64,000 nt of DNA from Paraspadella gotoi. Taxonomy: Eukaryota > Animalia > Chaetognatha. Each line of letters opens with the position of its first letter. Position 1 is the first letter of the stretch. The notes beneath the pieces are model-generated. The model saw only the letters and a list, made by a program, of their open reading frames with translations. It was not told the DNA's origin and did not search any database. Position numbers and translations under genes: made by a program. Below, piece by piece: positions 2,113 to 48,794 of this stretch. The stretch lies in the NCBI GenBank assembly GCA_051294375.1, contig CM119271.1, forward strand, positions 15,878,770 to 15,942,769, written 5' to 3'.

Positions 2113-3480
2113 ATGAGTTCGAACGCGTTTTCGATCGACGACGCGTTCGCCTCCGACGAGGAGGAGACCATCCGCACCTACGGATCAACGGGGGAATCCA
2201 AACTCTCTCCCTTCAAGCACTCCTCTAGACCGGGAAGCGCCAGGCCACTCAACTCTCCTCTCCAACTCGCTGCCGAAAAAGGTCTCCCCTTGAAAATTAA
2301 TCTTAGTAATGTTCTGTTCTGTTGTATCTTTATTATAATTAATTGTCGTGACAGTTTTATTTGTACATTGTTTCGGATTGTCACGTTCTGAGTCAATCTA
2401 TGGCTTCGGCGGTATTTGACCATCTGGCTTCGAGGCTTGGGACCCTAATTGACCGTGCGTTGTAGATTGATAGTACAACATTGAGTTATTGGATCTCAAT
2501 AATAATAGATTGTGTCGTCAGTAAATTGTCTGAATTGTAACGCGAGTTAAAGATCCTTCCCTTATGTTTTTTTGTCCAGGTGGCTGCATTTCGGGTCCGA
2601 GCGACAAAATCGCCAGCGAGGCTTTGCTCGGAGACGATGAAGAGGAGGAGGCCGAAGAGCACGGCTCCGTAAACGGCTCAATCGGTTCGTAATTGTTTCG
2701 TCGATTCGCTGATTGATTCGATTGATTGGATGATTGATCGTCGAATGGATTCATGTCACTGATTTCTTTTCATTTCTTCAATGATCTCAGGAAGCGTTAG
2801 TCTAAGCAAATTGCGGGGCATCACCAACGTGATCAATATTCCTCAGTCTCAATACGCGGATTCGTTGGCCGACACCAACCTCTCTGTCAAGTCCTTCCCT
2901 CGCTCAAAATCATGGTGGAAACATCCCAAAGTAAAAATGAAAATGCAAATTTATTGGATAAGAGATAAATTCATTTGTGTATTAGCTTTTTTGATTGAAT
3001 GTTAAAAAGTATTATAACTCAAAATGAGTTAAATTAATTGACTGAGAATATAATAATTTCAATATTGCCTTGCAATAAGATATTGTAATAAAGTAACAAT
3101 GGAAATACTAATGAGATATTATTTAGTAATTGTAAACTATTATATGATTAAAATAGAGTGTATTAATATCGTCCAGGTGAAAGAGAATTGGAAATTAGTT
3201 TTGGCCTCCTTTCTTCTGGTCCTCGTGGGAATCGGCCTCATCTCGGCCGGCGTCTGCGTCAGCCTCGTTCCAATTCCTCACGTCGAACAAATCGTATTCT
3301 ACGTCGCCGGCGCCATTTGCTTTATTCCGGGTGAGTATTTAAGTAGTGTAATTCTTTTTTAATTTATTAAATCCCCCCCTTCGGCTGTTGTTCTCAGGTG
3401 CTTACCACGTCGTTTACATATACTTGGCGGTGCGTGGCCGGCAAGGATTTAATTTCTACAATCTTCCTCTTGTTAAATAA
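2113..3480 (+). CDS. TMEM134: Transmembrane protein 134, multi-exon
   Basis: N-terminal FSIDDAF motif; spliced SWWKHPKVKENWKLVLASFLL...ICFIPGAYHVVYIYLAVRGRQGFNFYNLP; stop 3478-3480. Confidence 0.85.
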
Positions 3481-5038: not shown

Positions 5039-7809
5039 ATGTGTGAAAACGTGAGCGAAGATTTTCGGCCGAGCATGACTCAGGACGAGTTCCTGGCGCA
5101 GTTGCGTTCGGCCGGATTCACTGAGAAGACGATCGCGGCGCTTGGTGACGAAGACATCAACAGCGACGCCGCGCTCAGGATTCTATCGGTGAGGACTTTA
5201 AAAACAGTTAAACTTAATTTGTAAACTTTCATTTGCACGTTGTAGAAAGTATAGTCGTGTTCGTTCTACAGCCTTTTGATAGAAAACTTGATGGGATTCG
5301 AATCGATTTTGAGAATGAATTAATGAATTCGGTCATCTGCTTTGGTTACTAATGGTAGGCGTTTTGCTTTAATTAGTTTTAAATAGTTTTAATTAGTTTT
5401 AAATAGTCTTAGAGCTACAGTTAGAAAAATCATCCCATCGAACGCCCTCTCCTCATGGGTCATCAGGTATCGGACATTGAGACTCTGGCCAAAGAGAAGC
5501 AACTCAGCATCGGACAGAAACGACTCCTCATCGAATTCGCAGCCAAACTAAATCCTAAGAAGAAGGAAGAGGAAGCCTTTCCCACGAGGTAAGGGCCAGG
5601 GTGAGGACTTGTTCGAAAGAGATTCTTTCTCTCACATTGAAAATGGAAAAGAAAATATATAATAGATAAAGAAAATCTACAATGAAGCGAAAGATGGAAC
5701 AAAGAGAAAAAGAAAAATGAATTGATAATTTGTAAATATGAAAATTAAAAAAAGGAACGGGAAAACAAACGCAAGAGAATTCGAATTTTAAAGAAACTTT
5801 TGACGAATTTGCAAAAAATTGCGGGAAGAAAGAAGTTCGCTGGAAGGAATGAAGAACTTACAAGGAATTGTTGCAACGAAAAAAATTGAAAGAAATTAAT
5901 CACTGAAAGAAAGAATTTGCTGAAAGAAGTTGGTTTAATTAGTAAATTACTGAAATTCTACCTTAATTTCTAAAAGAAGTTAATTGTTGAGATCAAAATA
6001 TTTGTAAAGAAAAATAAATTAATGAAACAAACAAAAAATACGGAACAAAAAAAAATCGGAGCGAAATTGAAATTGAAAAAGAAGTTGTTTTTCCCCGAAT
6101 GCAACAGAAAGAGAGAGAATAAAAACCAAATCCGAAAGAAATCGTGAAACCAAAGTAGGAGAAACTCAAGAAAAGAATCGCTGCCGAACAATTTTTTAAA
6201 AATCAAAACTAGAAAAAAATTTGAAACTGTTGGAATAAAAGAGAAAGGAAATTGAGAATGGAGAACGGAGAACGGCAATTTGCAATAAAAGAAAAAAAAT
6301 TAATAAAATTAATAAAAGAGAAACAAAATTGAGAATGGAGAACCACAATTTGCAATAAAAGAAAGAAAATTAATAAAAGAGAAACGAAATTGAAAATGGA
6401 GAACCGCAATTTGCAACAAAAGAAAGAAAATTAATAAAAGAGAAATGAAATTGAGAATGGAGAACCGCAATTTGCAATAAAAGAAAGAAAATTAAAAAGT
6501 AAAGACAAAGAAATTCGTGAATCCTGAAAGAAACCACTCTCAAGAATGTGTTTAACTGTGAATTAACGAATCGATGAACGATTGGACTTCTCTTCATAAA
6601 CAGCGTGACCGTCGCGTTCGACTTAGCATCACCTCAAACTCGGGTCGAGCTACTCCTCTCAGGTGGTCAGCTACAAAGCCTCACTTTTAATGCCTAAAGG
6701 TTCGCCCGCTTTAACTCTCAAACGCGAGTCGACGCTTACTCGCAACCAAAAATCGAACGTGAGTGATTATAGCGCGCCAAGACGCTTCGGAGATTCGATG
6801 ATACGTATTTACAAAAGTCTCGTAGTATTTACATTTTGTATTTGTATTTGTTTAAATACCTTGGTTTTTAATGATATAATTTCCAGGAGCGCTTACAGCA
6901 AAGGCGGAAACCGCTCCGCTCCTTTCCCGCCGTCGGCTACTCGTGGCGGCTACAATCGAAAAAGGATGCAAGGTGAAAATAAAGGATTTGTGCACAAATT
7001 GTGGTGGTATATTCACACCACCTCACGTCCACGATCGTTAAGCCAATACCATTGGCACAGAGGGGGAACACGCCATCCCAGGCGGAGTGTTCCATCCACA
7101 GTCCTAACAACTTCCCTCTGCGTTGGCAAAGCGTGACCGTCCTAGGTAAACCGCGCCAGTGACTGGAGGCGTCACTGAGGGTCGGAAGCCCCCAAGGTCA
7201 CAGACTGATGGTATGTGGACTGCAGAGATAACAATATATTTTGACTAAACCTCAACTGATGCCAGAAAAGAAATATAGTATTAATAGCAGTACAATGAAG
7301 AATGCAGTTCCGATTGAAGATTAAAATGATCTTACAGAGCGATTGAATCCCGCGGAGTCGAACTGCGTCTGCGTCTTTAATCTTTCGCCTTCGACACAAG
7401 AATTCACCATCTACGATTTTTTCAGTCGCCTCGGTTACGTCAAGGACGTCAAGATCGTTTACGACAGGTGGCGACGCTCGTTGCAGTTGCGATTGCGATG
7501 GGAGTCAATGTCAAACTATTCACGAGACATTCCTCTTTCAGGTCGACGGGTTGTTCCCGTGGATTCGCCTTTGTTCACTTCGCCGACGTCGCCACCGCCA
7601 AATACGCCAAGGAGACGGGACAAGGGATGTTGATCGACGGGCAGCAGGTCAGAAATTTTCTTGTAGAGGCTCATAATAATCTTTTCCAAGCATTGATCGA
7701 TCGATCGATCAATATTTGTCCTCATCTCCAGATTCGCATCGATTTCTCCTTAACGAAGCGCGGTTACTCGCCGACGGGACACCAAGGAAAATCCTCTGCC
7801 CCGTATTGA
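5039..7809 (+). CDS. Divergent Transformer-2-like RRM protein, possibly with an N-terminal SAM-like helical domain; middle exon linkage uncertain
   Basis: 3' exons give NPAESNCVCVFNLS...IVYDRSTGCSRGFAFVHF...IDGQQIRIDFSLTKRGYSPT, matching the Tra2 RRM and linker. 5' exons 5039-5188 and 5468-5588 give LRSAGFTEKTIAALGDEDINSDAALRILSVSDIETLAKEKQLSIGQKRLL. Confidence 0.6.
6230..6500. repeat. Intronic tandem repeat, ~60-bp unit
   Basis: Repeated aattgagaatggagaaccgcaatttgcaataaaagaaagaaaattaataaaagagaaa units. Confidence 0.8.
7000..7295 (+). mobile_element. Probable solo LTR of a tRNA/twister TRIM family in an intron of the Tra2-like gene (3' end approximate)
   Basis: Starts TGTGGTGG..CACCACC like the 46424 LTR; A/B-box-like tggcacagaggg / gtgttccatcc; shares gccagtgac..ggaggc(g)gtcactgagggtc with the 44061 LTR. 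Confidence 0.55.
7123..7195 (+). ncRNA. Twister ribozyme-like fold, type P5 permutation
   Basis: TTG..GCGT-GACCG-TCCTAGG-TAA-ACCGC-GC-[CAGTGAC/GTCACTG]-A-GGG-TCGGAAGC-CCC-CAA; pseudoknot CCG(7137-39)/CGG(7183-85); predicted cleavage T7147^A7148. Confidence 0.7.
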
Positions 7810-17724: not shown

Positions 17725-19370
17725 ATGGCGGGAAACTTTTGGCACAGCTCCCACTACAACCAGTGGCTGCTGAATCGGCAAGACTTGTACCGCGAGCGAA
17801 AGGCAGATCTGGAGCTCTTGGGAGAAGAGGATTATCAAAAGATCACCGTCTTCTTCGCCAATCTCATTCAAGCTTTGGGCGAACAGCTCAAGGTCAGACA
17901 ACAGGTCATCGCTACCGCAACCGTCTTCTTCAAGAGATTCTACGCCAGGAATTCCCTGCAGAGCATCGATCCTCTTTTGATGGCACCCACAGCCGGTGAG
18001 TTCTCACCACAATCCCGCGTACAATAATCCTACCCTCCACCATCTCCTCGCCCACTTTCCAGTCTTTCTCGCCTCTAAAGTGGAAGAGTTCGGGGTGATC
18101 TCCAACTCGCGTCTCATCTCCACTTGTCAAACCGTCATCAAGAACAAATACTCGATGCCCTACAAAAACGCCGAGTTTCCCTTCAGAATCCAAAACGTGT
18201 TGGAGTGCGAGTTCCATCTCTTGGAGACGATGGACTGCTGCCTCATCTTGTACCATCCATACAGGCCTTTGTTGCAGGTGAACGGAGGAAACGGTTCCGG
18301 GTCTTGTAACCTTGATACCGTTGCCAATATTTTTCGATCCCATTTTGGGAGTTAATTCTTGGTCAGATAATCTTAATTGGCTTCAGCATTTTAGCCTATT
18401 TGCTTAATTATTAAAGAAATAAGGTCACAGCCGGGTTGCTTACGGATGCACACTTGGGTTGAGCATTTCATCCGATGGCGTTGAGGTCTTTGACTCTCAG
18501 TCTTTGACTCTCAGTCTTTGACTCTCGGTTGTGCTAGTCCCGTCTCGCTTTGTCAAATCACCTGGAAATTGTTACTGTGGACAAAATCAATGGGAACATA
18601 CCGCCTCAAAAATCATTATTATATTAGTATTATTATGAAAAATTGCAAGATTACTTGTTTTACTAAATTAGACTTTCAAATTTTATATTCAAATTTTATA
18701 ATAAATGTGTGAAATCCTTTGGGTTGTGTTGCGTAATGAGAAAGAGTTTGAAATAGTTCTACAACGATTTATTTTTAACAGTGAACATGTTTCGACTTTG
18801 ATTCAAGTCTTCATCAGCACTTTCTAAAATAAATGTCTATATTATAATTTATTATAGACTCTATAATTTTGATCGGTGAACCTTTTCCTTGTCAGTACGT
18901 TGCGGACGCGACTCACGAGGAAAAGACTGAAGACAACAACAAGATTCTCTCTCTGGCCTGGAAGGTGATCAACGACAGCCTTCGCACCGACGTCCCTCTC
19001 CTTTACCCTCCTTACCAAATCGCCCTCGCCGCCCTCCACGTCGCCCTCGTCTTTCAGGGTGATGATGATGATGATGATGATGATGATGACGAATAATGTT
19101 GCTGATGATTGATGATGATAATATCATTCTCTCCCTTCAGGCAAAGAGTCCCGCTGGTGCCAGTGGTTCTCTGAACTCAACGTGGACATGGAGAAAATCC
19201 TCGAGATCACGAAGCAGATGATGAATCTCTACGAGTTGCTCAAGACTTACGACGAGAAGAGCGACATGCCCGCCATCTTGGATCGAATGCCCAAGCCTAA
19301 GACTTCGCCCTCGCGCCCGCCCTCTCAAGGGCCCGAGGCGGACAGAGACTCCAAGAACGGAGCGCATTGA
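17725..19370 (+). CDS. CCNC: Cyclin C, multi-exon
   Basis: MAGNFWHSSHYNQW...LKVRQQVIATATVFFKRFYARNS...FLASKVEEFG...LECEFHLLETMDCCLILYHPYRPL...WFSELNVDMEKILEI. Confidence 0.97.
18780..18821 (-). ncRNA. Minimal type I hammerhead ribozyme (Penelope-like-element type) in a cyclin C intron
   Basis: Minus strand reads AGTG-CTGATGA-AGAC ttgaatcaaa GTC-GAAA-CATG-TT-CACT: intact core, stem I AGTG/CACT, palindromic ACATGT stem III. Confidence 0.7.
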
Positions 19371-19751: not shown

Positions 19752-38160
<18,409 letters not shown>

Positions 38161-43717: not shown

Positions 43718-44184
43718 GTCATTTTTGTCAACGAGAATTCTTTATTTTCAAGATAAGATTTGATTCATTTGAAAAAAAAAATGGATCCATTCTTTTTCCT
43801 TTTTTTTTTTTCGTGCGTTGTGCCCATTGCCTTTAATCATTTGATTGTTTTGTAATGAACACTTTTTGAGTGGATTTGTTTATTTTGCTGAACTTAATAC
43901 AAGTTATATATGCGCAAGAATATATTTGGGTTTTTTGTTCGATCGCCCCGTCAACCATTTTTGAAAGTATTTGAAACGGTTGTGAATGATAATGTGATCT
44001 CTCGAATGTACGATCATTCGTTTTAGCGGAATTCACAATCTCAAAACTAATTTATAAGCGTGTGGCAGCAAGACTTAAAGCTGCCTCACTGCTGTCCGTC
44101 CTCAGCCTCGTCTCAATGGCTGAGCAGGCTAAATCATCTCATTCCATCCGTGCGTCCCGGGTTCAATCCCTGGGTATCCCGGTT

Positions 44185-44268
44185 CTGGCTTAAATGTGAC
44201 GGTGCGCGGTATATAAACATGCCAGTGACAGGAGGCGGTCACTGAGGGTCGCGCAGCCCCTACGCCAG
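44185..44268 (+). ncRNA. Twister ribozyme-like fold in LTR1
   Basis: Same architecture as the LTR2 copy, with small indels (L4 TCGCGCAGC); TAA at 44214-44216. Confidence 0.6.
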
Positions 44269-44666
44269 TTAGTGAGATACCCCGCGCCCCGGGTATCACA
44301 GGCTATCCCCCGTTGCCATAAGTGGTGAGCCCTACTATCGAACACGCAACCGCTGCGCACCGTGCGCCCACGCTTACGTCGCTTAGGGTATGCATATCAC
44401 GCCTATGCCCTACTTCTCTGGTAACGCTCCAGACTCGCTCGCTCGCTCGCCCGCTCGCTCTCACTATGGCAATGAGATCAAAACCTTCTCTCAGACATCT
44501 CCTCAGGATTGAGGCCCTGTGGAGAGGTCTGGTGGGGGATCCTGTGGCAGCAAGACTTAAAGCTGCCTCACTGCTGTCCGTCCTCAGCCTCGTCTCAATG
44601 GCTGAGCAGGCTAAATCATCTCATTCCATCCGTGCGTCCCGGGTTCAATCCCTGGTTATCCCGGTT

Positions 44667-44746
44667 CTGGCTTAAATGTGACGGTGCCGGTATAAACATG
44701 CCAGTGACAGGAGGCGGTCACTGAGGGTCCGCAGCCCCTACGCCAG
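44667..44746 (+). ncRNA. Twister ribozyme-like fold (type P5) in LTR2
   Basis: P5 CTGGC/GCCAG; P2 ATGT/ACAT; GA-CGG 44680-84; TAA 44693-95; GC; P3 CAGTGAC/GTCACTG; P4 AGGG/CCCT; L4 TCCGCAGC 44728-35. Confidence 0.78.
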
Positions 44747-45150
44747 TTAGTGAGATACCCCGCGCCCCGGGTATCACAGGCTATCCTCCCGTTGCCATAA
44801 GCGCCCCGTTTGGTGCGGTCCATTTTAGTAATTTGATATAGTTGATTCATGGATGCGTTAATACAGGGCGCACCCATTCCTTAAAAAAGAGTGGCACCGA
44901 TTGTTCGACCCCAATTTGTAAGCTGATCCCGGTGATCCCCAGTTCCCCGATCACCCTGTTCCCCGTCCCGAGCGGACTCCAGTTTTCTTTGCGTTTCTTT
45001 AATTTTTGTTTTAAATTCCGACATTTAGTAATTAGAGAGGAAAAAATGATAATTCACTCTCAACGGTTGCGCCTTTGAATCTGACCTCGTTTCTATCATC
45101 GATCCATCATACATAAGATATTGAAATATCATTTATCCATCATTATAACT

Positions 45151-48003
45151 ATGTTCGAGACGAACGAGAAGCGAAGCGACGGGCGAGTCTTCGTGGTGAC
45201 GGGAGCCAATCGCGGCCTCGGATTTGAAGCCACGCGCCGATTGGCTAAAATCGCCGACGACGACAACGACGTCGTCTATCTTTGCTCCCGATCGGTTTAC
45301 AGAGGAGAAGACGCCGTCGAGGCGTTGGAGGCGGAAGGATTGAAGGCGACATTTCATCAACTCGACGTTGAAGACGACGAAAGCGTGAGATGGTACGGAT
45401 ACTCTCTTTCTCTCTTACTCTTTCTCTCTCTCTCTTACTCTTTCTCTCTCTATCTCTCTCTCTCTCTCTCTCTCATTTTGAATCGTTTTTCTACAAGGTT
45501 GGCCTGGGATTTGCGGCATCGTCACGGCGGCGTCGACATCCTCGTTAATAACGCCGGCGTCGCGTACACTTCGCCCAATCATTTTGAGAACGAGTCTGTC
45601 GTCGAGGTAATTTCGTAAAGATGTATTTATTTAATTTATTACTTATGTCTTAACGTTTTAACTTTCCCTCTTCACCCCCCCTAGCAAGCCGAAAACACGT
45701 TGGCCGTAAATTTCTTCGGGACTCATCGAGTCTGCGAACACCTCTTTCCTTTGTTGCGAAAAAACGCAAGGTGAGTTTGAGAGAGACAGACAAACAGGGA
45801 GACAGAGACGGACAAGAAGACAGAGAGGGGGACAGACAGAGACAGAGATAGAAAAAAAAGATAATGTTAGGTGAGGTGGTGCCCGAGACCCTGACTACCC
45901 TACCCACCCCCTTTTTTTCAGAGTTGTGAACGTCTCCTCTCAAGCGGGTCACATGGCGTTGGCGCGAATGTCCAACGATCTTCGCTCGAAATTCCTCGAT
46001 CCTCGAATCAGCGAAGAAGTTTTGTTTCAACTCGTGGATGAATTTCTTCAAGTCGTTCGACGCCAAGACGGCGAGAGCAATGGTAAGGAATGGGGGCTTG
46101 ATGTTGCATGATGTGCTAAGGTGGGTGAGGTCGTTAAGAAATTGGTACAAGCAGTATAAAATTATCCATTCATTCAATAAATAAGCTATCTTGTCCCTTA
46201 CTTTGGACTGGCTATGATAGTTTAAGGTTTCATCACACTCTCTCAGTCTTGTTTAACCCTATAAATGTTAAAATTTCAAAATAGTTTTTTATCAGTTTTT
46301 TTTGTAGATTTCGATTTGTTATAAAAAGTTGATTAAAAGAAATTTAACTCTTTTTTAAAAATTCTTACATTAAGTTAGTCAAAAATTAGAAAAACTTATA
46401 TTTTAACTTAAATTTTTGTATATTATGGTGGACTAAAATCCACCAACCGTTCATCAGCGGCATTGGTGCGGAGGCAAGTCATTCGCCTCCCAACCAAAGG
46501 TCCGGGTTCAGCCCGGTGGTCGTCTGGCAGTTAAGAGGGACGGGCGCTTAACCCGCTGTAACTCGTGTTACAAGCCTGATCCGAAGCTCAGGGACTGCTT
46601 ATATTGAACGCTTCTGTCACTATCACATAACAATAATTACTGTCTCTTCATTGGTGAGCCCGACTTCCGAACGACAACACCAACAACACTTTCAGGCGAC
46701 ATGCTCAACTTCGATTGCACTTTCCGCCAAAACATCTAGAGACATGCCTCAACTGGTGACGAACTTTCACAAAACAACAATTCCTGAAGAGACGCAACAG
46801 ACTTCTCCACGGGAGGGGGGGATGTATGTGACTAAAATCCACCAACCGTTCATCAGGCCATTGGTGCCGGAGCAAGTCATTCCGCTCCCAACCCAAAGGT
46901 CCGGGGTCTAGCCGGTGGTCGTCTGGCAGTTAAGAGGGACGGGGCGCTTAACCCGCCTGTAACTCGGTGTTACAGCCTGATCCGAAGCTCAGGGACTGCT
47001 TATATTGAACGTTCTGTCACTATCACATAACAATAATTACTGTCTCTTCAATATTAAATATAGTTTTTTAAAATTTTTAACCTTCTTAATGAAATAATTT
47101 TTTTAAATGAGTTTTTTTTTTTTTTTACTTTTGACGAAGAATTCAAATCTGCCATCAAAATTAAGAAAAGTCCCTTTTGAAATTTTAGGATTTCTTATGG
47201 ATATATATATATAAATATAGCCTAATGCAAAAATTAAAAAATAAAAATTGATTTTTTTTTTTATAAATTAATATTCATTGGTGATACGTTGTTCATAATT
47301 GATAATTAAAACTTTCATTATGCTCTACCCTTGAATGCTTGGACCGATTTTCTTTTAACCTCCACTTATGGATTTCCCATTTCACAATCTATATTTATCA
47401 TTCATAATTTTTTATAATATGTGCGTAAAACGAGCGCAACCTAAGTTTGAAGAGTGTCCTCTTTTTTTTGTACAGGACTGTCAAATAAGTAAGTATATAA
47501 AATAAGCAGTCCCTTCAGTATTTGATGGAAAGCCTTTCGCCTTCTCGTTTTCTCCTCGTCAAATCCCTTTGTCCAGGTTGGCCCTGCACTTACTACGGTG
47601 TCTCCAAACTCGCCGTCACCGTCCTCTCTTCTTTGCAACAACGTCGTTTCGATGCGAGTCCTCAAAATGACGTTCTCGTCAACGCCGGTCAGTTAGAAAC
47701 CTGATATTCATAATGATAAATACTAATAATAATATTGACTCCTTCCCCCCTCCATTCCTAGTCTGTCCCGGTTTCTGCAACACCCGACTCTCCCAAAACC
47801 GCGGTCCCCGCCGTCCCGAAGAGGGCGCCGATGCCATCGTCGCAGCCGCCCTCCTCCTGCCCGAGCGCGCCGCCAACCCGCGCGGTTCCCTCCTCGTCGA
47901 CGGCGCCGTCCGAGTTCCTCTCAACGCCGCTTCGCTTCCGGTCATGGCGCAAACTCGCGCCGCTTCGCCGCCCAAAAGGAATTCAGAGTTTTTCGTCACT
48001 TAA
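45151..48003 (+). CDS. Carbonyl reductase 1-like short-chain dehydrogenase, multi-exon
   Basis: VVTGANRGLG, GGVDILVNNAGV, TLAVNFFGT, RVVNVSS, GWPCTYYGVSK (YxxxK), LVNAVCPGFCNT. Confidence 0.9.
46527..46598 (+). ncRNA. Twister ribozyme-like fold in LTR1
   Basis: GCAGT-TAA-GAGG-GACGG-GCGCT-TAA-CCC-GC-[TGTAAC/GTTACA]..CCTGA-TCCGAAGC-TCAGG-GACTGC. Confidence 0.65.
46926..46999 (+). ncRNA. Twister ribozyme-like fold (type P5) in LTR2
   Basis: P5 GCAGT/ACTGC; GA-CGG 46938-42; TAA 46949-51; GC; P3 CTGTAAC/GTTACAG; P4 CCTGA/TCAGG; L4 TCCGAAGC 46981-88. Confidence 0.72.
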
Positions 48004-48794
48004 ATTTTCTTCTGGGGGGCGAAGCGTCTGAACCTATAATTGGGATCCGTTATCTCGTCGGGCTCACCATTTATGGCGTCACAAAAGGAAGATATAATTT
48101 TAGTAGAAAAAAAAGTATTTGATATTTACTAGGAGTCCTCATTAATGAGGGAGGAGATAAAAAGGGTTGACGATTATCTTAGTCGCTTTAGCCGACAGTG
48201 GCCGTGCTGACCCCACGATCGATAGTCTTGAGTCGCCTAAAATCCAGGCGATGCCCAGAGGAGATCGTGCGCGACCCTCAACGGCCGCCATTGTCTCCTT
48301 TTCAATTCTTTATTCTTTAATCCTCCGCTTTCACTCTCCCTAAGATTTCCTCCTAGTCAACTGCCTTTGCCTCTCTTCTTGTTTTTGCGCTGGGCCTCTT
48401 AGTGCTGAAAATCCTGTTGAAATTCGCGCTGAACCTTATTTATTTATTATAATTTATTTATTATTTAGTCTTGATCGTTTTTTAGCTAGTTTTCTATTGC
48501 GATTTGTTTGTTTATTGCTGATTCTGTCGTTTTCGATCAGCAGAAATTTTTATTAACCTTCGAATTTGATGTGTTAATATTGATCGTTGATTGTAGGATT
48601 TCTTTTAGATAAATAAAATTATGTTTACCAAGAGCGTGACGCCGTGCAAAGCGAAGGTCCCCGCCAAAAAGGGATACTCTTTCGTGAGGTTTTACAAATG
48701 CCCCTACGACTTTCAGTACACGTGAGATAAATCTTGTTATTTTATACAAATATTCTAGTCTAAATATTAATAGATATTTATATTAACGCTCTAG

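Follow-up and report, generated by a model that had tools for sequence, protein, structure and literature searches.

The window analysed here, a 64,000-nt stretch of the genome of the chaetognath Paraspadella gotoi, contains a Tra2-like gene with an intron at 6973-7337 in which a twister-like ribozyme core lies within a repeat. The two RRM exons flanking this intron have Tra2-beta as their best single-stretch PDB match and RRM_1 as their Pfam match, and a cyclin C exon near the gene matches cyclin C chains (E 4e-24). The intron is spliced out in one 4,486-nt contig of run X9, a run that we guess to be RNA and that may derive from a non-carrier of the 7000 insertion, and the same contig also omits the next two introns of the gene. 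The preliminary description had placed the core in sense orientation in a pre-mRNA intron of the Tra2-like gene, and this is correct: the core is on the + strand inside 6973-7337, and its predicted cut site is separated from the donor by 176 nt and from the acceptor by 189 nt. The features of the locus are as follows.

6973-7337, + strand: intron of the Tra2-like gene, GT..AG, 365 nt
7000-7195, + strand: very high-copy LTR-like repeat, 5' part (third family), with a sharp TG-starting 5' end at 6998-7000
7001-7021, + strand: 5'-terminal hairpin (from folding)
7053-7063, + strand: box A-like motif, 1 mismatch, at the same offset as in the 44-kb LTR
7131-7139, + strand: P2 3' strand (7131-7134), conserved G-A (7135-7136) and T1 strand CCG (7137-7139), from the structural descriptor
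7140-7147, + strand: P1 segment, a loop-less palindrome with 6/8 positions self-complementary in this copy
7148/7149, + strand: predicted scissile bond
7151-7156, + strand: P2 5' strand (7151-7154, 3 of 4 pairs) and T2 strand GC (7155-7156), from the structural descriptor
7157-7177, + strand: P3 hairpin, 7 bp, with a stem identical to that of the 44-kb family
7179-7192, + strand: P4, 3 bp, closing L4 (7182-7189), which holds T1 strand CGG (7183-7185) and T2 strand GC (7188-7189)
7196-7295, + strand: single-copy sequence, unshared with the family at 80% identity

The twister core and its T1 pseudoknot

The core at 7131-7192 (+) is laid out as P2'-GA-CCG-(8 nt)-N-AA-P2-GC-P3-P4-U-CGG-AAGC-P4', and when set against Table 1 of PMC8501958 (available in part) this order of elements is that of a type-P5 twister. 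The letters reported for it earlier are in place, with GA-CCG at 7135-7139 and T-CGG-AAGC at 7182-7189. All of the conserved L1 and L4 letters (N^AA, GA, U..AGC and GC) are in register; T1 has 3 Watson-Crick pairs, T2 has 2 pairs, P2 has 3 of 4 pairs and P4 has 3 bp, and a search of this copy for P5 in register gave no convincing one. For comparison, P2 has 4 of 4 pairs in the core at 44676, and the P2 strand of the 46-kb family is 3 nt long. By analogy with the role described in the available text of PMC5408937, G7135 is the predicted general base. The cut had been placed at 7147/7148, one position too early: the register N^AA-4 nt-GC (PMC8501958, Table 1, available in part) gives 7148/7149.

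A structural descriptor of this layout (P2 with at least 3 of 4 pairs, T1 with 3 Watson-Crick pairs, GC for T2 and P4 of at least 3 bp) matches the window only at 7131-7189 and 44676-44735, with 46539 and 46938 joining under relaxed settings. Of 60 simulated windows, a single one contained a match to the descriptor, or 0.017 per window. Rfam gives no twister in the window at the gathering score, nor in the two scanned regions when E is relaxed to 10, and the same scans give no hammerhead either. The minimum-energy folds of the three cores are not the twister scaffold, such folds being unable to model pseudoknots, and the folding z-score of the core is unremarkable at -0.63. The 7000 and 44.5-kb cores are homologous, with identical P3 and P4 stems and an alignment beaten by 0 of 500 shuffles, whereas outside the core the 7000 copy and the 44.5-kb LTR show no significant alignment (beaten by 179/500 shuffles in the 5' part and 134/500 in the 3' part). 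Between these two cores, one of the three T1 pairs and two of the four P2 pairs have changed on both sides (by eye). Since no variant is listed at 1% in four runs at 7135-7138 (G7135, A7136, C7137, C7138), the CCG strand of T1 appears to be family-wide; the same is seen at A7149 and A7150. Taken as sequence, 7131-7192 very probably forms a twister fold.

The preliminary description had rested its case on T1, reading GA-CGG / T-CCG in the other families and GAGGG / UCCCAAGC in canonical twisters. The first pairing is found at 44680, 46539 and 46938, and the second agrees with Table 1 of PMC8501958 (available in part). It had further argued that three base-paired versions of T1 point to a selected fold, and the fold argument holds, more strongly than stated, through conservation confined to the core and two-sided changes in both T1 and P2; three versions, however, are not special to this genome. 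Viral loci with CGG/CCG pass the strict filter in 29 of 120 cases among the matches listed, and GCG/CGC and GTG/CAC versions occur in metagenome loci. The CCG/CGG version of the 7000 core is found in one of 45 viral type-P1 matches, the phage twister L240 (P1 5 bp, P2 4 bp, P4 4 bp), and in none of the viral type-P5 layouts (0/40, strict), none of those with a short P1 (0/120, among the matches listed) and none of the type-P3 layouts (0/51). No viral contig combines CGG/CCG with a short P1 (0/120, among the matches listed), and the family-specific P3/P4 pattern has 0 matches in metagenome contigs. Prokaryote genomes yield four matches, of which three could be parsed, none of them with P4, and one could not. 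The CCG/CGG T1 thus appears rare, yet present in other natural twisters. In the rice twister most T1 pairs are exchangeable (PMC5113685), and double mutants for the two relevant single-pair swaps have relative activities of 0.86 and 0.74 (supplement of PMC5113685; columns counted by hand and swaps scored singly). The T1 swap is real but modest. It adds little by itself, given that published mutagenesis tolerates it and that other natural twisters have it too.

The 7000 repeat family and its two-LTR relatives

The repeat had been described as a solo LTR spanning 7000-7295. Its 5' part stands, as 7000-7195 belongs to a very high-copy LTR-like family, but 7196-7295 is single-copy and has no 4-6-bp target-site duplication at 7294/7295. 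In run X4 the summed contig depth is ~1e6 over 7078-7165 compared to 190-290 in the flanks, with a similar contrast in five other runs; as summed depth is not a copy number, we state copy number as thousands-fold only. Loose contig ends lie before the 5' boundary at 6998-7000, with low agreement. At the other side, family similarity ends at ~7195-7203 and 7210-7295 is at single-copy depth (289 in X4). LTR ends at 7264 and at 7294 were both rejected, no target-site duplication fitting either. Because similarity stops at ~7195-7203 and no duplication is present at 7294/7295, 7000-7195 is roughly the 5' two-thirds of an LTR-like unit. Just past the shared segment, 8 nt are duplicated in tandem at 7199-7210 in run X7, so that the alleles differ at the junction.

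The two relatives with complete LTR structure lie further along the window.

44061-44799, + strand: miniature LTR element of the second family, complete, with two ~259-nt LTRs identical at 254/259 positions
46424-47050, + strand: miniature LTR element of the first family, complete, with two ~227-nt LTRs

Each LTR of both elements carries a twister core, with the predicted cuts 479 nt apart in the 44-kb element and 400 nt apart in the 46-kb element. Both elements have a 4-bp duplication, a primer-site-like motif directly after the 5' LTR (at 44323 and 46652), which is one and the same TGG-starting 10-mer in the two, and a purine tract ahead of the 3' LTR (before 44543 in the 44-kb element). Each 44-kb LTR also has a box A (1 mismatch) and a box B (exact) 43 nt apart; loose pairs of this kind number 22 in the window, the pair is weak in the 46-kb LTR, and ARAGORN calls no tRNA. 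The two LTRs of an element differ in 7 (44061-44799) and 15 (46424-47050) gap columns compared to 1 and 5 mismatches, mostly as single-base indels, which suggests assembly error in the repeats, so that details of individual copies need care. In the 5' LTR copy at 44.2 kb, P1 and L4 contain insertions and P1 is longer and non-palindromic; this longer P1 may be such an error. The two-LTR elements would probably be processed to unit length by their own twisters.

Several decayed sequences accompany these elements. At 48057-48290 (-), an LTR-end-like sequence is followed by the same primer-site-like 10-mer and a P4-region remnant, likely a further decayed element, and 2411-2455 (-) is a decayed fragment like the 44-kb core (E 0.011); its loop reads T-CCC-AAGC, as in canonical twisters, and no other part of the core is recognisable. 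A decayed relative of the 7000 family lies antisense in the cyclin C gene region at 18400-18640 (-), where it aligns to 7080-7156 better than 1000/1000 shuffles, reads GA-CGG, keeps the palindrome centre of the 7000 family and has a short tandem repeat in place of P3/P4. A separate repeat of ~1.5 kb is present in two copies 10.7 kb apart (21530-23110, 31200-31330 and 32240-33750), its ends are inverted, and some stretches inside it are complementary to them; it gives no Pfam match in four frames. We take the layout of this repeat to resemble the DIRS type.

The palindromic P1 and the proposed mechanism

In all three families the P1 segment is a loop-less palindrome of 6-8 nt, self-complementary to its centre and forming no stable hairpin. 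Its self-duplex energies range from -8.3 to -10.9 kcal/mol in the three families; for the 7000 copy the self-duplex has -9.4 kcal/mol, compared to +2.7 and +5.8 kcal/mol for the hairpins. The palindrome centres differ among the three families, and the innermost pair, which cannot form within one strand, is Watson-Crick in all three and in the metagenome twister L354. Viral and metagenome type-P5 twisters (strict, among the matches listed) served as a control: of their 28 distinct P1 segments, 26 are hairpins of -8.3 to -19.6 kcal/mol, and the two short segments are a perfect palindrome in L354 and a non-palindromic one in L026. Within the 7000 family, variants at the palindrome centre look linked in X4 (depth 17,374 and 17,414) and unlinked in X1, X5 and X9; covariation at the centre was rejected as inconsistent across runs. 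This design of P1 suggests that two twisters complete each other's P1.

Two of the control twisters merit separate description. The type-P5 twister of L354 (625-670) combines a CGG/CCG T1 with its loop-less 6-nt palindromic P1 and has the A-to-C change in L4 that is seen in the 44-kb family; downstream of it follow a motif that starts with TGG and a glutamine-rich frame with no Pfam match. It is possibly the same design in the mobile element of another eukaryote. The 6-nt P1 of the phage type-P5 twister L026 is palindromic only if the base before the cut is included, and the same match length is found in L009 and L033.

We favour, at a probability of roughly 0.55, the reading that 7000-7195 is an isolated, diverged fragment of a repeat with very many copies. 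This repeat is likely the LTR of a TRIM, a short LTR retroelement with no coding capacity, and carries a type-P5 twister predicted to cut the RNA of the element, likely best through paired copies, the intronic copy being likely a weak passenger. Transcription through a two-LTR element would produce two twisters 400-480 nt apart, whose 6-8-nt P1 palindromes would pair with each other and so replace the usual P1 hairpin. Both sites would then be cut at N^A to release a unit-length RNA. As in the model put forward for plant retrozymes, this RNA might become a circle that an autonomous Gypsy-type element copies, with a host tRNA as primer. A broader proposal, which we make tentatively and which may well prove too broad, is that several animal miniature LTR families carry one twister per LTR with a P1 that forms only between two copies, a switch that would cut full elements to circularisable unit RNAs and spare introns with lone LTRs.

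The strongest competitor to paired copies holds that the twisters are ordinary monomers, with the short P1 a mere linker and the palindrome incidental or serving RNA dimerisation in packaging; the elements would still be twister-bearing miniature LTR retroelements. Pairing through P1 may be unnecessary, since twisters without P1 cut at almost wild-type rate (PMC5408937, available in part), P1 mutants are well tolerated (PMC5113685), and the phage twister L026 manages with a 6-nt non-palindromic P1. We would put the chance that P1 pairing matters for the cleavage rate slightly below even. Against a monomer, the innermost palindrome pairs, impossible in a hairpin, are Watson-Crick in three families and L354 around different centres, and we consider the monomeric alternative rather unlikely.

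Returning to the favoured reading, the fate of the intronic copy has to be considered by itself. The preliminary description proposed that it could cut the host transcript, and an active copy that removes a sizeable share of the Tra2-like pre-mRNA and lowers or regulates expression would agree with the sense orientation of the core, its distance from both splice sites and the intact catalytic-core letters, T1 and T2. At the cut the copy reads A^A, a three-A junction, compared to U^A in nearly all of the family depth. As three-A variants of twister are active in vitro (PMC8501958, available in part), the intronic copy may still cut, and the dispensability of P1 in published twisters (PMC5408937, available in part) likewise leaves room for cutting of the host; transcripts of the thousands of family copies could also supply a partner in trans. 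Against this, the copy departs at three core positions (7134, 7147 and 7148) from 98-99% of the family depth in X4 and from more than 99% in X7, X8 and X9, it has lost the terminal P1 pair that most family copies can form, and it stands alone. Moreover, the existence of the spliced X9 contig leaves host cutting unsupported, and the 3' junction of the insertion is found without or nearly without differences in runs X4, X7 and X8 (two studies), so that the insertion seems to be tolerated. Sizeable cutting of the host transcript is therefore improbable, and we expect with fair confidence that the intronic copy cuts little pre-mRNA. Since the twister likely works best as a pair of copies joined through the palindromic P1 and this copy is a lone one, it is likely a weak passenger with little effect on the host gene.

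A further alternative concerns the class of the repeat, in that the 7000 family could be SINE-like or Penelope-derived and have its ribozyme module in common with the 44-kb LTR. For this family neither a two-LTR copy nor a primer site or duplication was seen, the 7000 copy has no box B within 2 mismatches, and its 5' and 3' parts lack significant alignment to the 44-kb LTR. The layout nevertheless speaks for an LTR: a sharp TG-starting 5' end, an opening hairpin (as in the other two families, by eye), a box A-like motif and a ribozyme at the offsets of the 44-kb LTR, and identical P3 and P4 stems. From this shared layout the 7000 family is likely of LTR nature and quite probably has the same two-LTR form as its relatives, and a SINE-like or Penelope-derived origin appears unlikely. 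Chance resemblance with no ribozyme at all, to which the missing Rfam match and the unremarkable folding z-score might point, is highly improbable given the descriptor null of 0.017 per window, the recurrence of the layout in three families, two-sided changes included, and every conserved position in register.

The twister-bearing miniature LTR elements, which lie outside the coordinates flagged originally, are a stronger finding than the T1 swap. In an animal genome, they would mean that elements of this type can exchange one ribozyme class for another, and would give twisters a second concrete role, beside the processing of 5' ends of non-LTR elements. If it is true that P1 pairing between copies gates cleavage, this would explain how thousands of ribozyme copies can reside in introns without destruction of transcripts, and would amount to a compact RNA switch that responds to the proximity of copies. 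If the two-copy reading is true, the elements would be LTR retrozymes of an animal, and their twisters natural dimers.

Comparison with known systems

The type-P5 class of twisters is reportedly due to Roth et al. 2014. The literature covered here, which stops short of the twister alignments of Roth et al. (2014) and of Lunse et al. (2017), describes neither an LTR element with a twister nor a twister that acts as a dimer in nature. Type-P5 twisters as described in the available text of PMC5408937 and PMC8501958 agree with the cores of the window in element order, N^AA, the GA before T1, the L4 letters U-x-x-x-(A/C)-A-G-C, the T1 and T2 pseudoknots, and P2, P3 and P4. They differ in P1, which is a 6-8-nt loop-less palindrome in the window and a 6-9-bp hairpin in 26/28 of theirs, among the matches listed. 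The 7000 core differs further in its CCG/CGG T1 (elsewhere, among the matches listed, only in L240), its P2 of 3 pairs and its position outside the Rfam models.

Among animal elements, the Helenus TRIMs and TRIMp3 (PMC10886601, available in part) resemble the complete elements of the window in being <1 kb with two LTRs, a primer site and a purine tract; the 4-bp duplications are as in the animal Helenus TRIMs, and the 44-kb LTRs have a candidate box A and box B. In contrast, the 7000 copy has no recognisable box B, and the available text of PMC10886601 does not mention twisters; five L4 motifs looked for in its supplement matched 4 times, always in internal regions, in a text whose line breaks can hide motifs. 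The T-variant twisters of Schistosoma Perere-3 (PMC8501958, available in part) likewise place a twister in an animal retroelement and show extra-A variants at the cut. Theirs belong to type P1, stand at the 5' terminus of a non-LTR element and take their P1 from the insertion site, whereas the ribozyme of the window is internal to an LTR-like repeat.

The idea of two copies completing a helix has its precedent in the dimer-dependent hammerheads of amphibian retrozymes and Penelope-like elements (PMC7229834, PMC7761336, both available in part), in which a helix too short in one copy is completed between two, as is only predicted for the twisters of the window; for efficient cutting, the hammerheads of the amphibian retrozymes have to be dimers (PMC7229834, available in part). 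Both the ribozyme class and the element class differ in the window. LTR retrozymes are described mainly from plants, with hammerheads (bioRxiv 10.64898/2026.07.22.740005, available in part). The plant LTR retrozymes (PMC4918200, PMC7761336, both available in part) are like the 44-kb and 46-kb elements in being short and non-coding, with one ribozyme per LTR, a primer site, a purine tract and 4-bp duplications; they also form solo LTRs and a unit-length RNA between two cuts, the latter being predicted here for the 44-kb and 46-kb elements. The elements of the window differ in carrying a twister, in their animal host and in a predicted unit of 400-480 nt, compared to the type III hammerhead, the 600-1000 nt units and the RNA circles of the plant retrozymes.
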